Assembly: GCA_027624715.1 (NCBI GenBank)
Contig: JAQBTV010000001.1
Coordinates: 75,752 to 139,751 of the forward strand
Direction of reading: 5' to 3'
Source: Pseudomonadota bacterium
GTDB taxonomy: Bacteria > Pseudomonadota > Gammaproteobacteria > Burkholderiales > Eutrophovitaceae
Length of the DNA: 64,000 nucleotides
Of this stretch, positions 51,981-57,651 are shown piece by piece; position 1 is the stretch's first letter; every line of letters begins with the position of its first letter. The notes below the pieces were generated by a model. The model had not been told where the DNA came from, did no database searches, and saw only the letters and a program-made list of their open reading frames with translations. Both the position numbers and the translations under genes were made by a program.

Positions 51981-52108
51981 TTAGCCTCTTTCATAAATAT
52001 TGAGTGAGCAATAGTAATCGAATCCGCAAGAAAAATCGATTTCATTTCCATATCATCAGGTGATATATGTCATGCTCGCTACTTTTATGGACATCTTGAA
52101 CCATAAGA

Positions 52109-52138
52109 TTCAAAGCTACGCTGCAATCTAGCTATAGT
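52109..52138 (+). promoter_or_regulatory. promoter-like hexamers in front of the tRNA stump
   Basis: TTCAAA (52109-52114), 18-nt spacer, TATAGT (52133-52138), ending 9 nt before G52148. Confidence 0.35.
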
Positions 52139-52147
52139 ATCTGTATT

Positions 52148-52174
52148 GGCACTTTAGCTCAGTTGGTTAGAGCA
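52148..52174 (+). pseudogene. tRNA gene stump (acceptor 5' strand plus complete D-arm only)
   Basis: GGCACTT-TA-GCTC-AGTTGGTTA-GAGC-A is a canonical tRNA 5' third. The following bases cannot form an anticodon stem, and no T-arm or AAGTGCC acceptor complement follows. The stop codon of the next gene lies at 52181. Confidence 0.6.
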
Positions 52175-52180
52175 ATGGTA

Positions 52181-53254
52181 TCAGTCCGAACCGCCCAGAA
52201 CAGCATGCCCTCCGACATTCCATCGCAGCATACCACCCGATAGATTAGCGAGTTTTGTAAAACCCAGCTCCTGAAGATGGAGGATAGCTTGAGCTGATCG
52301 TGCTCCGGACCGGCAAACAGTAACGATTGGCATACCTCGGTTCAATTCTCCAAGCCGGCCCACCAGTTGATTTAGCGGTATTAATTTTGCTCCCGGAATC
52401 CGGCCTAATGGCCCTTCAAACTCAGCCAATTCTCGGACATCTATAATCTGCACTGTCGCCAGTATCTCCTCGAGAGTTGGAGGTGCTATCTGCCAAATCC
52501 CTGAAAAACTATACGTGAGATTTGCCCAGTCTTGAGTATTCAATTTAGGAGTGTTGCCATCCGGTTGGCCACAATTTAAATTCGCCGGCACAGCACGATT
52601 AATCTGGCCGGGATGCAGTAACTTCAAGTTCTCCATATACCCCAAGAAATCTTGAAGATTAATTTCTCCTCCTAATCTTGGATTGAAACGCTTTTCCTCC
52701 AAGACACGTGACACGGTCATTCCTCGATAATCGTGCCCAGGATAAATCAAACATTCATCTGGAAGGGTAAAAATTTGCTCGTGAATCGACTGGAACATCA
52801 TTTTCGGGTTTCCCTCCTGGAAATCCGTCCTTCCTGTCCCCCGGATTAATAGACAATCTCCAGTGAAAGCCATGGATTGATCATCGAGAACTAAAGTGAT
52901 GCATCCGTTCGTATGCCCAGGTGTCTCACGCACATCCAACTTCCTACCACCGAAAGTAATTACATCGTTCTGCTTCACGTATCTCCCGGCACCACGAACA
53001 CCCCCATTCGCTGAAACCACGATTTCACTGCTAAGGCTATTGTGGAGCAGCCATGCCCCGGTAACGTGGTCAGCATGCACATGGGTCTCAACGGTAGCGA
53101 TGAGATCAAGATCCATCTCCTTTATCATCGCCTGGTCTCGCATGACCTGCTCGAATACAGGGTCAATCAAGAGACACTCTCTAGATTCAGCATCACCCAA
53201 AAGATACGTGTACGTAGACGACTGTTGGTCGATCAATTGACGGAAGATCAGCAC
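52181..53254 (-). CDS. persulfide dioxygenase (ETHE1-like MBL fold) fused to a C-terminal rhodanese domain
   Basis: 357 aa with N-terminus MLIFRQLIDQQSSTYTYLLGD, HVHADHVTG and GHTNGC. The C-terminal rhodanese domain has the active-site loop VCRSGARS. Confidence 0.85.
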   Translation of the reverse strand: MLIFRQLIDQQSSTYTYLLGDAESRECLLIDPVFEQVMRDQAMIKEMDLDLIATVETHVHADHVTGAWLLHNSLSSEIVVSANGGVRGAGRYVKQNDVITFGGRKLDVRETPGHTNGCITLVLDDQSMAFTGDCLLIRGTGRTDFQEGNPKMMFQSIHEQIFTLPDECLIYPGHDYRGMTVSRVLEEKRFNPRLGGEINLQDFLGYMENLKLLHPGQINRAVPANLNCGQPDGNTPKLNTQDWANLTYSFSGIWQIAPPTLEEILATVQIIDVRELAEFEGPLGRIPGAKLIPLNQLVGRLGELNRGMPIVTVCRSGARSAQAILHLQELGFTKLANLSGGMLRWNVGGHAVLGGSD

Positions 53255-53390: not shown

Positions 53391-54368
53391 CTATGCGGTT
53401 AAGCATTTTTTTAATAGAGATCGCATTAGGACTGCCCCCTCTACCACCTGATCGCATTGACGAAGGATATCTTTTGAATCTGCAGAATAGCTGGCAAGCA
53501 CCATTAAAATATCAAGCACATTCCAGGATGAATTACGCTCCCTACTGCCTATGCCTTCATCACATTCAAATTCACTTTCAAGAACTTGTTGAGTCTTTCT
53601 ACCCCACATACGCCGCACAGATCCTGCCAGCCAGGCTTGTAGTGCCTCTCTAGCAATCCTTTGACGTGTCCAATCGACCAAATGAAGACAATCTTCACGA
53701 GCTAAGTCAATAGCTTTTCTAAACGTAGGCAGGATATTTTCCTCTCTTGCCGGGATCCGATGGGCAAGACTTGCATTGAGTTGTGACACCCCGACTGAAT
53801 AAGATGCCCCCGTTCCCTCTTGGAACCATCGAGCAAGAAGGCGGAGCCCTCCTCGACTCAAACAATTATGAAAAACAACCTGGAGCCTAAAGGGATCCAT
53901 ACTCCCTGGATCAAAGTCATAAAGGCTTGGCAACGAAACCACCAATGACATTTGTGCTCCGTAAGACCCATATTTCACCGACACTTCCACTTCATCCGGA
54001 TTAATTCTTAAAGTCACTAAAGCATGCTCGATCGCATTAACAACATGCTCATGTGAAATAAACTGACGTCCACGCGCCATGTCAACAATTGGGGCCCCTC
54101 TTCTCGACTGAGGGTAATGATTTGACCGATATAAAATATCGCGAGTTACTAATTTATCCCTGCTTACAGATAGACCGTCAGAAGAGCGGCTATTTATGTC
54201 CATAATTCTCGTAAAGCGTGGCAGCGTACCATTTAATTCCCGTAACTTACCGGTTATGCCCACATTACGTTTCGATACCGATTGATCAATACGATCTCTA
54301 ATTACTGAAATACTACGTTGTAATTTAGGACTCGATGTGCTGTTAAGAAAAAAACTGAGCTGTTCCAT
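53391..54368 (-). CDS. hypothetical cytoplasmic protein, no family recognised
   Basis: 325-aa ORF (326 aa from the GTG at 54371) with a GGGGG Shine-Dalgarno-like run just upstream. No signal peptide or TM segment. Co-oriented with, and 121 bp downstream of, the WYL regulator gene. Confidence 0.7.
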   Translation of the reverse strand: MEQLSFFLNSTSSPKLQRSISVIRDRIDQSVSKRNVGITGKLRELNGTLPRFTRIMDINSRSSDGLSVSRDKLVTRDILYRSNHYPQSRRGAPIVDMARGRQFISHEHVVNAIEHALVTLRINPDEVEVSVKYGSYGAQMSLVVSLPSLYDFDPGSMDPFRLQVVFHNCLSRGGLRLLARWFQEGTGASYSVGVSQLNASLAHRIPAREENILPTFRKAIDLAREDCLHLVDWTRQRIAREALQAWLAGSVRRMWGRKTQQVLESEFECDEGIGSRERNSSWNVLDILMVLASYSADSKDILRQCDQVVEGAVLMRSLLKKCLTA

Positions 54369-54443
54369 CACTAACCCCCGTTGTAACTAATAATCTTGGA
54401 AGTAGTTTGCAGCCAGCACTGGCTCACCAGATGAGCCTAGACC

Positions 54444-54488
54444 AATAAATATTGAAAATATTTATTTTTAATAATTTATATAAATCAA
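54444..54488 (-). promoter_or_regulatory. perfect 10-bp-arm palindrome overlapping promoter-like hexamers upstream of the orphan gene
   Basis: AATAAATATT (54444-54453), GAA spacer, AATATTTATT (54457-54466). On the minus strand, TTGATT (54488-54483), an 18-nt spacer and TAAATA (54464-54459) place a -10-like box inside one arm. Confidence 0.4.
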
Positions 54489-54492
54489 TGAC

Positions 54493-55464
54493 TTATTCGT
54501 AAATAGCCAACATTTCAGACACTTTTTCTCTAATCATTTGGCGCAATGAAGCAGGCTCAATCACCTCAACATCAGGACCAAATCTAAGGATATCCATTAT
54601 GAGTTCAGGTTGTTCAGCATATGGTATTTCTAAAATAAAATAACCCTCGTCATCAAAATAAGTCCGTTGAGATGGATGCCATTCCTCAAGAGAAACCCAC
54701 TTAGCACGCTCAGGACCAAATCGAAGTTTAGCCCACAGAAGATCAGTGCCAGAAAAAATGCCATATCCTGATCCAAGCACAGCATCTAATATTTTTTCAT
54801 CGCATTGAATAGCCGCTTCATCCTTCAGTTTCGCGGAACGTACCGCATCTAACGAAAAGCTACGTACTGCATTCACAGAATGACACCACGCATCTAAATA
54901 CCAATTATCTCTGTAGTACACGATGCGCTGAGGTGAAACAGATCGCAGTGTAACCTCCTCTCTTGAGCGCACGTAGTATGCAAGTACAAGTTGTGACCGT
55001 TGCATCAAAGACAATGCAATCACTTCAAAATGCTTAATACTTCGACTGCGAGAGCCCATATTGAGGATTTTGATACGGTTCTTTATGGCGTCCACTGAGT
55101 ACTCACCAACCTCAATGAGGTCGCACAATTTTTGCTTCAACGGATCAAGTCGCGGACCGAGCAAACCTGGTTGAATTTGACTCAACAAAGCCTCCATTGA
55201 GAGTAAGGCAAGAATCTCTGATTGATTAAACCAAATCCCAGGTAACTCATAGGACACCACGTCGGCAATCTCTTGATCAAAAATATAACCGCGATGAGTA
55301 CGATCCCAACTAATGGGGGCGTTGAGCCGATCCCTCATATACTCGATATCACGCTTAAACGTTGCCTTTGACACCGAAAGCTCTTCAAGGAATCGCCCTA
55401 GCGGAACCGATCTATTATCACGAAGCAATCGATCAATTTTATAAAATCGCTCTGTTCGTTCCAA
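54493..55464 (-). CDS. HTH-WYL-WCX transcriptional regulator (YafY/BrxR/CapW-like architecture)
   Basis: 323 aa with an N-terminal winged HTH (LEELSVSKATFKRDIEYMRDRL), the WYL signature YYRDNWYLDAWC and a C-terminal extension of about 90 aa. Confidence 0.9.
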   Translation of the reverse strand: MERTERFYKIDRLLRDNRSVPLGRFLEELSVSKATFKRDIEYMRDRLNAPISWDRTHRGYIFDQEIADVVSYELPGIWFNQSEILALLSMEALLSQIQPGLLGPRLDPLKQKLCDLIEVGEYSVDAIKNRIKILNMGSRSRSIKHFEVIALSLMQRSQLVLAYYVRSREEVTLRSVSPQRIVYYRDNWYLDAWCHSVNAVRSFSLDAVRSAKLKDEAAIQCDEKILDAVLGSGYGIFSGTDLLWAKLRFGPERAKWVSLEEWHPSQRTYFDDEGYFILEIPYAEQPELIMDILRFGPDVEVIEPASLRQMIREKVSEMLAIYE

Positions 55465-55524: not shown

Positions 55525-57651
55525 TCAACGGTCGAACAGATTGAATATTTCTTTTTTCCTCAACATCTCCGACAAAATAACTGGTGTACCTTGATTTTCC
55601 GGATAAAACACATAAACAGGTACGCCTGATCTACCAAAAGAAGTTAATGACGCAGTAATCGCCGCGTCTCTAGATGTCCAATCAGCTCTAAAAGTTATCA
55701 CTTTATTTTTCTTAAACGCGGACACGACTTCCTGGTCATCAAGCACCAATGCCTTATTCACTTGACAGGTGATACACCACGCTGCCGTGTAATCAACGAA
55801 CACCGCGCGGCCCTCCTCACGAGCACTCGCCACCCCTGCCGATGACCAAGATTTCCAATCTGTTTGAAGAACTTCTCGATTAATCTTTTGATCCAATGCA
55901 GTCACAACGTTAATTAAGCCTGCGAGTGAGACCAAGAGACTGGTCGCAATTAGGGCCTTCCAAGGACCTATACGAGAGATCCTTCGATACTGCAGCTTAC
56001 CAATGGCCCAAACTGATAACCCAATAAAAACCAAAACGACGAGAACTTTAGAGACATTGTGAATGGTTGTTTGCTGACCTAACACCCAAATCAACCAAAT
56101 GACAGTCAAATACAAAGGCACACTCAACAGGTTCTTTAAGGTATTCATCCATACACCTGGCTTTGGTAGCCAAGCAGCAAGACCAGGTCTCAACGAAATG
56201 ATTACATACGGCGTTGCCATCCCGATTCCAAGCGCTAAAAAAGTAAGCATACTCGGTGCGGCCCCTTGTGCAATTGAAAAACCCATTGCAGCACCCATAA
56301 AAGGGGCTGTACATGGCGTTGCAATAATAGTTACGAGAGCCCCCGATAGAAGGGAAGACCAACGGCCAAATGACCCCTTGATTCCACCAACGCGCTGCAA
56401 GCTGGTACCGATCTCAAATAAACCGGACATATTCAACGCGAGCACAAAGAACAAAACTATTAACCCTAAAACCATTTCGGGAGCTTGTAATTGAAAACCC
56501 CAACCAACCTGCTCCCCGGCCGACCTCATAACCAATAGAGCTCCACCTATCAAACAAAACGTTAAAACAACGCCACAGGAAAATAAAACCGTATCACGAT
56601 AACGCGCTGATACGGAGCGCTCTTCTTGCTCGATCAATTCTATTAACTTAACTGCCACGACAGGAAGCACGCACGGCATTAAATTTAAGATCATCCCACC
56701 CATCAAGGCAAAACAAATCGCTAACCAAAGGCTGGAGATAGATTGAGTCCCCAAAGAATAAATTGGAGATTGAAGCGCTAAAAATTCCTTTGGAGTGCGA
56801 CGTAGGTCGTAACTTAAAATCTTGCCACTCGCTTTATCCGTTACCGCCAAAACACCCTCGAACGAAGTTTTCGAGCTCGTATAGTCAGGCGACAAACGTC
56901 CACGCAAATGCATACCTGATGCGGCCGAAACTAGGGTCTGCGGGGCCTGATATACGATGACATTACTTTTTGCAGGAAAAAACTCCGCCGAAATAACAGT
57001 AGACTCCAGGCGGCTTAAATCAAGACTCCATTGTCCCTCTTGACTCACCGTTACATCAAACCAGTCCTCGGGCGCTTCTCTCGGCATTTCTTTCAGGGCT
57101 CTTTCAATATCACTCGCATCCGCTGTGGATATCGCTAAATCCCCTACCTGAAGGTCCATGAATAGCTCAGCCTCTCCAGGAATACACAAGTCTTTACAAA
57201 CAAGCCAAGACACCTTTGCCGAGAAGGGATGCTGGCCAGGTAGTGCGTGTTCAGCGACTTTGAGTTGGAAGGGAAAGATAACCGTACGGCCGTACCCAAA
57301 ATTGACAAAATTCTCAAGTTTGAAGCGACTGGGAGTTGGCCATAACATGGGCCCTACGACAAATGTACTGGGAAGCACCCAATCAACGTGGGTGGGTAGG
57401 CCTGTATCACCTGGATTTTTCCAATAAATGTGCCAGTCTTCCTCAAGCGCTACACGGATACCGAGGTATAACTCCTGACCTGGAGAAACCCGAACGAATT
57501 GCGTAATGAGATCGAGCTCAGCCTGCTGAGTGGATGCGCCACTTCGATCAGCCGCATACGCCGGATAAAACACCGACAAGATAACCACAACGAGCCAAAC
57601 AATGGCAAAAATGTTAATTTTTGATCGCATTGCCAGCAGTATAGTCGACAA
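55525..57651 (-). CDS. dsbD: DsbD/ScsB-family transmembrane protein-disulfide reductase
   Basis: 708 aa. The long periplasmic N-domain has HIYWKNPGDTGLPT and WLVCKDLCIP. The membrane core has the Cys motifs MPCVLPV and TPCTAPF. The C-terminal thioredoxin domain has WCITC. Confidence 0.88.
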   Translation of the reverse strand: MSTILLAMRSKINIFAIVWLVVVILSVFYPAYAADRSGASTQQAELDLITQFVRVSPGQELYLGIRVALEEDWHIYWKNPGDTGLPTHVDWVLPSTFVVGPMLWPTPSRFKLENFVNFGYGRTVIFPFQLKVAEHALPGQHPFSAKVSWLVCKDLCIPGEAELFMDLQVGDLAISTADASDIERALKEMPREAPEDWFDVTVSQEGQWSLDLSRLESTVISAEFFPAKSNVIVYQAPQTLVSAASGMHLRGRLSPDYTSSKTSFEGVLAVTDKASGKILSYDLRRTPKEFLALQSPIYSLGTQSISSLWLAICFALMGGMILNLMPCVLPVVAVKLIELIEQEERSVSARYRDTVLFSCGVVLTFCLIGGALLVMRSAGEQVGWGFQLQAPEMVLGLIVLFFVLALNMSGLFEIGTSLQRVGGIKGSFGRWSSLLSGALVTIIATPCTAPFMGAAMGFSIAQGAAPSMLTFLALGIGMATPYVIISLRPGLAAWLPKPGVWMNTLKNLLSVPLYLTVIWLIWVLGQQTTIHNVSKVLVVLVFIGLSVWAIGKLQYRRISRIGPWKALIATSLLVSLAGLINVVTALDQKINREVLQTDWKSWSSAGVASAREEGRAVFVDYTAAWCITCQVNKALVLDDQEVVSAFKKNKVITFRADWTSRDAAITASLTSFGRSGVPVYVFYPENQGTPVILSEMLRKKEIFNLFDR

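Follow-up and report, generated by a model that had tools for sequence, protein, structure and literature searches.

What joins the two genes of a minus-strand pair lying between positions 53391 and 55464 of a 64,000-nt stretch of DNA from an uncultured Burkholderiales bacterium (hereafter the window), and to what might such a pair respond? The upstream gene (54493..55464, minus strand) encodes a 323-amino acid (aa) transcription regulator of the YafY family, in which a probable helix-turn-helix (HTH) region is followed by WYL and WCX domains. The downstream gene (53391..54368, minus strand) encodes a cytoplasmic protein of 325 aa, for which an earlier, sequence-only reading could name no family and which profile and model comparisons now assign to a divergent branch of DUF932. 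We propose that the pair is probably the local unit of an undescribed WYL-dependent, SOS-independent regulon of the DNA-damage or single-stranded DNA (ssDNA) type, of the same kind as those of PafBC, DriD and DdaA. Support comes from the domain identities of the regulator, the DUF932 homology of its partner, the conservation and geometry of an operator-promoter element between the genes, the co-occurrence of operator and regulator, and the repair-type content of the regulon.

As previously described, the two open reading frames (ORFs) are co-oriented on the minus strand, and all peptides quoted from them are present in the sequence. The raw ORF of the second gene runs from 53391 to 54371; alignment places its true ATG at 54368, the start shared by all homologues, so that the gap between the genes measures 124 bp and not the 121 bp first given, while the adjacency of the pair stands. 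The ATG is preceded at 7-11 nt by a Shine-Dalgarno sequence, GGGGG (54375..54379, minus strand; GGAGG in relatives), recognized from sequence and alignment together. The regulator gene starts with a TTG codon that is kept in relatives. It begins just 60 bp past the dsbD stop codon, has no recognisable promoter of its own and may be co-transcribed with dsbD.

In the intergenic segment, the sequence-only reading had noted one perfect palindrome; there are in fact two, and only the GC-rich one, GGCTCA-N5-TGAGCC (54421..54437), is conserved. It is perfect, occurs once in the window, and is the predicted binding site of a WYL regulator dimer. Exactly 11 nt downstream lies a -10-like hexamer, CAAACT (54404..54409, minus strand). 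The second palindrome, the AT-rich AATAAATATT-ttc-AATATTTATT (54444..54466), is absent or degenerate in loci L003, L001 and L006; it was rejected as the operator and is probably outside the mechanism. The intergenic alignment keeps GGCTCAyNNrrTGAGCy, the downstream segment GCGCAAACTAC and the Shine-Dalgarno sequence. The operator is kept in all clade relatives and in three remote pairs (L009, L010 and L011), and the whole operator-promoter precedes the remote DUF932-like genes P0022, P0021 and P0024 (31%, 37% and 25% identity), each of which has a WYL/WCX gene before it; P0024 resides in another genomic context, in a GC-rich genome.

In every locus the spacing from the operator to the -10-like CAnnCT is fixed at 11 nt, and the distance to the ATG ranges from 26 to 36 nt. 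The same arrangement is found upstream of DUF932-like genes in five lineages, across proteins at 25-37% identity and genomes of 43-73% GC. In none of the loci does a -35-like hexamer lie 16-18 nt from the -10. The fixed register suggests that the operator is locked to the -10 element, which would place the palindrome centre near -32. Loci L039, L077 and L078 carry ATAACT, CATAAT and CATACT, respectively, at the same spacing. Each locus has a single operator, which never lies upstream of the regulator gene except in L077, where a divergent site abuts the regulator start codon. The 60-bp dsbD-WYL gap contains no palindrome, and autoregulation through the same operator was discarded for the window locus since no site precedes the regulator gene. 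Altogether, the claim that a palindromic operator functionally links the regulator to the gene downstream is borne out by a conserved element with which orthologous regulators are associated, binding itself being predicted.

Metagenome contigs were scanned with GGCTCAYNNNRTGAGCYASTRC-N6-CANNCT, yielding 51 loci with GC contents between 0.43 and 0.73. The same scan of 2.9 million viral contigs gave no matches, and a phage origin of the promoter was dropped on this ground. Three results are independent of the selection by motif: the unforced positions, the co-occurrence of the regulator, and a separate three-locus test. Unforced positions are kept in the 41 distinct contexts, with G before CA in 38, A at hexamer position 4 in 35, and A or T before GGCTCA in 37. 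A full-length regulator orthologue (39-92% identity) lies near the site in 23 of the 51 loci, colinear wherever the contig holds the whole gene; the colinear orthologues align over residues 1-322 at 47-92% identity.

The genes behind these sites are varied. DUF932-like genes form the largest group (15 of 51 loci), followed by ARPP-1 (PF20208; 5 loci) and, with four loci each, MrfA/YprA-type helicases with MZB and WHD_HRQ1 domains, RmuC, the 'probable DNA repair protein' TIGR03623, and IS1595 transposases. ORF6N targets account for three loci; DUF2130, HIRAN, an HtrA-like protease and DUF4258 are each represented once, and the target is unknown in the remaining eight. The combination of MZB and WHD_HRQ1 marks the repair branch of the YprA family (PMC12458937). 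Genomes in which the helicase, RmuC, TIGR03623, HIRAN, DUF2130, ARPP-1 or DUF4258 genes follow the element are mostly rich in GC. Neither recA nor lexA was found among the operator-linked genes. The same element also fronts unrelated genes far from any WYL gene.

For the separate test, three regulator orthologues were chosen by protein similarity alone (62%, 54% and 55% identity). All three loci carry, within 5 kb, a perfect GGCTCA-N5-TGAGCC followed by the 11-nt spacer and a -10-like hexamer, where chance would give about 7e-4 per locus. One of the three lies in a complete genome of 4.24 Mb and has the site ahead of a DUF932-like gene (protein start MGEIVNPAIAG) that is 4.8 kb away from the regulator. 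The remaining two have DUF4258 genes behind the site, which in one of them is divergent from the regulator gene and abuts its start codon. Neither the operator nor the regulon was found in the literature searched, which also yielded no functional study linking YafY to DNA damage.

Several arrangements seen among these loci deserve mention. Genes for IS1595-family transposases lie about 36 nt behind a full WYL operator-promoter in L053 and L056, and also in L041 and L042, in at least two sequence contexts; this insertion sequence may carry, or have captured, a damage-responsive promoter. In L076 (9487-10975) and L073 (3598-4427), an MntA-like HTH-nucleotidyltransferase gene and a 144-aa gene follow a duplicated operator-promoter and a truncated DUF932-like 5' end, MGEIVNLAMGEA; the intact DUF932-like gene comes next and has a second promoter copy before it. 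In L030, L057, L058 and L063 the operator-promoter and the TIGR03623 gene are separated by a conserved, arginine-rich ORF of 48 aa (MHGITVQELWPARPPRR...), which may encode a leader peptide or a small protein induced by damage, or else be a wrong-frame artefact of GC-rich DNA. Small DUF4258 genes recur as targets in L035, L077 (4428-4703, minus strand), L078 (5236-5481) and L020 (228-512), and another DUF4258-like ORF sits directly upstream of a classical DUF932 gene (P0025), which suggests an association between DUF4258 and DUF932. In L065 (12315-14147), a single operator-promoter is followed by an ARPP-1 gene and, about 430 nt past its end, by a DUF932-like ORF (E 1e-9); ARPP-1 and DUF932-like targets can therefore share the strand downstream of one operator-promoter.

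The regulator itself proved to be a genuine WYL-WCX protein with a probable N-terminal HTH, as had been claimed. Pfam assigns residues 145-212 to the WYL domain (PF13280; 61.8 bits against a cutoff of 21.8, E 6.1e-17) and residues 243-319 to WCX (PF25583; 61.5 bits against 23.9, E 1e-16). The HTH stays below threshold (HTH_11, 20.3 bits against 25, E 5e-4; HTH_DeoR, 15.5 against 21); HTH_11 is listed for some orthologues among precomputed Pfam matches, and SVSKATFKRDIEYMRDRL reads as a typical recognition helix. The nearest solved relatives are PafC (7p5x, 1.9e-15) and PafBC (6sj9, 4e-14), followed at a distance by DriD (about 1e-3) and CapW (7e-3). The orthologous group is large, with more than 7200 cluster representatives at E<=1e-60, annotated merely as 'YafY family' or 'WYL domain-containing'; lineages named for members at 50% identity or more include Sulfuricella, Sulfurimicrobium and Burkholderiales. 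Aligned with the DriD chains, and using the list of ssDNA-contact residues given for that protein (PMC9186387), DriD residues R178, Y192, R204, W206 and K202 are matched by R174, the Y of WYL, R, F and A, respectively. Thus, four of the five aligned contact residues are retained if W206 is counted as F; Y168 and S172 fall outside the aligned stretch. The regulator had also been described as the only transcription factor detectable in the window, and a spot check of six other ORFs within the 64 kb returned enzymes in all six cases.

Identity between relatives drops much faster for the partner than for the regulator: pairs of values (regulator, then DUF932-like protein) are 92% and 76-80%, 79-84% and 50-60%, and 59-61% and 25-31%. 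Over the full range (59-92% against 25-80%) the DUF932-like protein evolves two to three times faster. Direct searches, as anticipated, reveal no signature in it: the 325-aa protein has no match at E<=1 in Pfam, PADLOC, NCBIfam or PHROGs, none among PDB sequences in single-sequence or profile searches, and no transmembrane or hydrophobic segment (maximum KD19 1.05). A word-indexed search of 5.8 billion proteins recovers only 20 relatives (47-100% identity), all from uncultured marine Betaproteobacteria or Burkholderiales. Their alignment shows an invariant N-terminal MEQLSFF, a variable linker (residues 30-98) and a strongly conserved core (100-325).

Profile methods carry the comparison further. 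An exhaustive search with the clade profile gives 119 matches, among which the intermediate ones (P0021-P0024) have no Pfam domain and the farther ones are bona fide DUF932 proteins (PF06067) aligned to query residues 90-262. With hmmsearch the clade profile recovers DUF932 proteins verified by Pfam (E 4e-21 to 1e-13); when a profile built from the clade alone is compared by hhalign with 16 classical DUF932 proteins, among them Escherichia coli YfjQ, the probability is 99.5% (E 3.8e-23) over 272 aligned columns. AlphaFold2 gave an unusable model from 13 close homologues (predicted local distance difference test, pLDDT, 43.9), and one with pLDDT 80.4 and a predicted template modelling (TM) score of 0.81 from a 114-sequence alignment. 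Foldseek finds no solved relative of the latter in the PDB (best E 0.4, TM below 0.25). In BFVD it matches 24 phage proteins at E<=1e-3, the top ones annotated as DUF932 or TIGR03299 (E 4e-8, TM 0.61). Since profile search, hhalign and predicted fold agree, we take the 325-aa protein to be a very divergent DUF932 member, one that belongs to the family by profile and fold and not by curated thresholds. The label 'unclassifiable' has thus to be abandoned, and what had been offered as a faint DUF932 resemblance was correct.

In this layout, residues 1-33 form a flexible N-terminal extension and residues 39-316 the DUF932 core. Near-invariant across the family are H106, G137, N168, W181, H203, W246 and W255-G256. 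Among the histidine- and cysteine-containing stretches singled out earlier, the family as a whole shares only H106, N168 and H203; in FHNC both H and C are specific to the clade, and EFECDEG sits in a variable insertion and is not conserved. An HNH-like reading of the H-N...H pattern was dropped as the first histidine is not kept across the family. The literature searched holds no functional study of DUF932, YfjQ, YafZ, TIGR03299 or ARPP-1.

The N-terminal peptide of this protein calls for separate comment. Residues 1-12 read MEQLSFFLNSTS, and MEQLSFF (codons at 54348..54368, minus strand) is invariant in 13 of 13 clade sequences while residues 30-98 vary; it recurs as MEQLSFF in P0021 (37% identity), MEQLSFS in P0022 and QLSFL in P0020. 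Synonymous codon changes among relatives (GAA/GAG and CTC/CTT/CTG) indicate that selection acts at the level of the peptide, which is a candidate beta-clamp-binding-like motif or degron. The consensus for binding to the beta sliding clamp is QL[SD]LF, and an N-terminal placement of the motif is known from Hda. QLSFF occupies residues 3-7, where pLDDT is below 40, and has F at position 4 rather than the L of the consensus. That it tethers the DUF932-like protein to the clamp is a speculative and rather doubtful suggestion.

Taken together, these elements would combine as follows. The regulator, a winged HTH (wHTH)-WYL-WCX protein of the YafY family, is probably a homodimer since a single 323-aa protein faces a symmetric palindrome, and would be made at a low constitutive level, having a TTG start and no operator of its own. 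It would bind GGCTCA-N5-TGAGCC some 32 bp upstream of the transcription start, at a promoter with a -10-like CAnaCT and no -35. Upon replication stress or damage, ssDNA, as the presumed signal and ligand, would be bound by the WYL/WCX module, and sigma-70 RNA polymerase would in turn be activated at this promoter, in a way that may resemble PafBC-type 'sigma adaptation' or activation by DriD and DdaA. The missing -35 and the precedents of these three proteins argue for activation rather than repression. The divergent DUF932 protein would then be produced and, we infer, would most likely act on DNA or at stalled replication forks, with its invariant QLSFF possibly holding it at the beta sliding clamp in this clade.

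A number of observations weigh against this proposal. The metagenome loci were picked by the motif itself, which makes its conservation partly circular. A generic promoter scan detects nothing at the -10 site, so that the -10 call is an argument from consensus alone. An operator centred near -32 is also typically placed for a repressor, and WYL repressors of the CapW type sense ssDNA as well (PMC11662680). Lysine 202 of DriD is not kept in the regulator, and QLSFF is missing from the GC-rich DUF932-like targets (start MGEIVNPALAG). DUF932 is mainly a family of phages, plasmids and integrative and conjugative elements. Finally, the regulon is not purely one of 'repair', as RmuC, YprA-family helicases, ARPP-1, ORF6N, DUF4258 and MntA-like toxin-antitoxin (TA) modules have relatives in anti-phage or conflict systems.

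Several of these points would also suit a module for phage defence or abortive infection under WYL repression, as with BrxR and CapW, in which phage ssDNA or damage frees the DUF932-like effector, which in turn blocks phage replication, for example at the clamp or replisome. The wHTH-WYL-WCX architecture, the match of PADLOC WYL models to the regulator (2e-34), the overlap of the operator with the core promoter region, the abundance of DUF932 on phages, plasmids and cryptic prophages, and the defence or TA relatives of the targets (PMC10270631, PMC12458937) all accord with it. We nonetheless consider such a module unlikely: the effector has no PADLOC match even at E<=1, no operator lies upstream of the regulator gene as it does in BrxR and CapW operons, and a promoter lacking a -35 argues for activation. 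Among the targets, the helicase bears a wHTH typical of the repair branch (PMC12458937), and TIGR03623, HIRAN and RmuC are of repair type. As the operator precedes repair-type genes elsewhere and is absent from the viral contigs, the stress or DNA-damage half of what had been called a stress or defence module is favoured, and the phage-defence half becomes less likely.

The setting of the genes points the same way. The pair is flanked by a metallo-beta-lactamase (MBL)-fold and rhodanese fusion resembling persulfide dioxygenases (52181-53254, minus strand) and by DsbD (55525-57651, minus strand). Loci with homologues of 49%, 60% and 80% identity share an identical gene order: DsbD, WYL/WCX regulator, DUF932-like protein, MBL-rhodanese, glutathione S-transferase (GST), FKBP, NIPSNAP and acyl-CoA ligase. 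The DUF932-like gene is found in seven GTDB species, all represented by metagenome-assembled genomes of uncultured Burkholderiales or Betaproteobacteria, and GC content is flat and normal across the pair. Because synteny is strict in at least seven species, from dsbD to housekeeping-type genes, GC content is normal and defence genes are absent from the neighbourhood, the pair is a vertically inherited core-genome locus and not a defence island. Beyond the syntenic clade, a WYL gene co-occurs with homologues of the second gene in L011, L009, L010, L032, L028, L076 and the E. coli yfjQ-yfjR pair.

The window locus departs from its relatives only in lacking the GST gene in the gap between MBL-rhodanese and FKBP and in carrying a tRNA fragment. 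The latter (GCACTTTAGCTCAGTTGGTTAGAGCA, 26 nt, 52149-52174, plus strand, within region 51981-52180) comprises the acceptor stem and D arm of a tRNA 5' end and abuts the MBL-rhodanese stop codon; ARAGORN and Rfam make no call on it, and it is absent from the loci of all relatives. The truncated tRNA reported earlier thus exists as a fragment, and its bearing on the pair, with the past rearrangement read from it, falls away, because the pair is syntenic in relatives that do not have it. A tRNA-linked mobile island was rejected likewise, the lone fragment being unique to this genome.

A further alternative concerns the palindrome itself, which might function as an RNA element (attenuator, processing site or stabiliser) in a read-through or 5' untranslated transcript. 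Its arms can pair as RNA, the sole variation in them (C to T) keeps a G-U pair, and read-through from the WYL gene is possible since the terminator and promoter scan finds no terminator between the genes. An RNA stem is nevertheless very improbable, as Rfam finds nothing and the flanking Y/R positions do not covary: C-G (20), T-G (13), T-A (4) and C-A (3) occur at the frequencies expected from independence. Moreover, the element keeps its spacing to the -10-like hexamer but not to the ATG, stands before unrelated genes far from a WYL gene and once divergent from one, co-occurs with orthologues of one DNA-binding protein, and has no U-tract.

Little credence can be given to the DUF932-like gene being a domesticated mobile-element remnant with no present function tied to the regulator, its adjacency merely historical: the usual residence of DUF932 on mobile elements, the faster divergence of the partner and the disparity in family size (more than 7200 clusters for the regulator, about 25 for the partner) would fit, yet every species has an intact, full-length copy with many invariant residues, promoter and operator are kept in five lineages, an operator-linked DUF932-like gene recurs in an unrelated complete genome at 4.8 kb from the regulator, and the N-terminal peptide is under purifying selection.

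We thus return to the SOS-independent, WYL-dependent regulon. ssDNA-sensing WYL regulators such as PafBC, DriD and DdaA are emerging as the main alternative to LexA for damage responses. The kind of regulator is established; what is new is the operator, the regulon and the DUF932 context. The locus reveals a further orthologous WYL group that has its own operator, an apparently activator-type promoter devoid of a -35 and a regulon readable straight from the sequence. It also provides a first regulatory context for DUF932, a large family whose members occur in the E. coli K-12 y-ome and on many mobile elements and have neither a known function nor a solved structure. In streamlined marine Burkholderiales the locus may amount to a minimal, one-target damage response. 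More boldly, and quite tentatively, DUF932 proteins (YfjQ and YafZ of E. coli included) could serve as the effectors in a widespread WYL circuit that senses ssDNA; the marine-clade effector, recruited to the clamp by QLSFF, would remodel or arrest stalled replisomes, and the GGCTCA-N5-TGAGCC regulon would represent an unrecognised SOS-independent damage response of thousands of Betaproteobacteria and other Proteobacteria, co-opted by IS1595 and TA modules.

How does this system compare with those already described? The regulator would act like PafBC, DriD and DdaA, yet it is an orthologue of none. PafBC, an ssDNA-triggered WYL activator of the DNA damage response in Mycobacterium and Arthrobacter (PMC11804915), is the nearest solved relative of its WYL-WCX part, and PafBC target promoters have a -10 and no functional -35, with the binding element in the place of the latter (PMC9186387). 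However, PafBC is a heterodimer or fused tandem recognizing an asymmetric motif, whereas the window has a single protein and a symmetric palindrome; the N-terminal HTH regions do not align, and PafBC is actinobacterial and proteasome-linked, its regulon containing recA and numerous other repair genes but lacking DUF932.

DriD of Caulobacter and DdaA of Acinetobacter and other Moraxellaceae are homodimeric wHTH-WYL-WCX proteins, activated by ssDNA and controlling SOS-independent damage regulons. Their sites are CGAC-N7-GTCG and CGWCA-N5-TGWCG, respectively (PMC9186387, PMC12392091, PMC13010146). The window site, GCTCA-N5-TGAGC, shares the CA-N5-TG geometry of the DdaA site while its half-site bases differ, and identity with either operator was rejected on account of the bases. 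The regulator resembles DriD in four of five aligned ssDNA-contact residues, and the site in L077 directly adjoins the start codon of the regulator gene, an arrangement also seen at the driD promoter (PMC9186387). In contrast to these systems, the window site overlaps the -35 position, theirs lying upstream of a real -35; similarity of the regulator to their proteins is weak (E about 1e-3) and confined to WYL-WCX; and their effectors DidA, AciT and RecA are not seen here, the main adjacent target being the DUF932 protein.

BrxR and CapW share the three-domain architecture and palindromic operators, and CapW senses ssDNA (PMC11662680, PMC9122601). Unlike the regulator described here, they stand first in recognised defence operons, which lie in variable islands, and their binding sites precede their own genes; the window locus is core and syntenic, has no defence system, carries its operator downstream of the regulator gene and has a promoter that is apparently activator-dependent.

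As to the effector, the likeness to DUF932/TIGR03299 proteins such as YfjQ and YafZ of E. coli K-12 extends over about 270 residues and includes the same predicted fold and shared near-invariant residues. The window protein differs in having lost the cysteines of the classical CxNSxD and VCxNG motifs (HNCLS and LARW stand instead), in its clade-specific MEQLSFF and basic helix extension, and in being chromosomal and vertically inherited rather than mobile-borne. A parallel to the pair as a whole is in the E. coli cryptic prophage CP4-57, where yfjQ (DUF932, 3e-52) adjoins yfjR (HTH_DeoR plus WYL, 25 bits against a cutoff of 21.8), with the gene order reversed and no WCX domain in YfjR. In this K-12 locus (L024; NC_000913.3, 2768665-2770404), a palindrome CGGACA-N5-TGTCCG lies 28 nt past the yfjQ stop codon (L024 13516-13532) and has the same CA-N5-TG geometry as the window operator, against a chance expectation of about 0.05. 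The comparison hints that the pairing of DUF932 with WYL regulators is older and wider than the marine clade.

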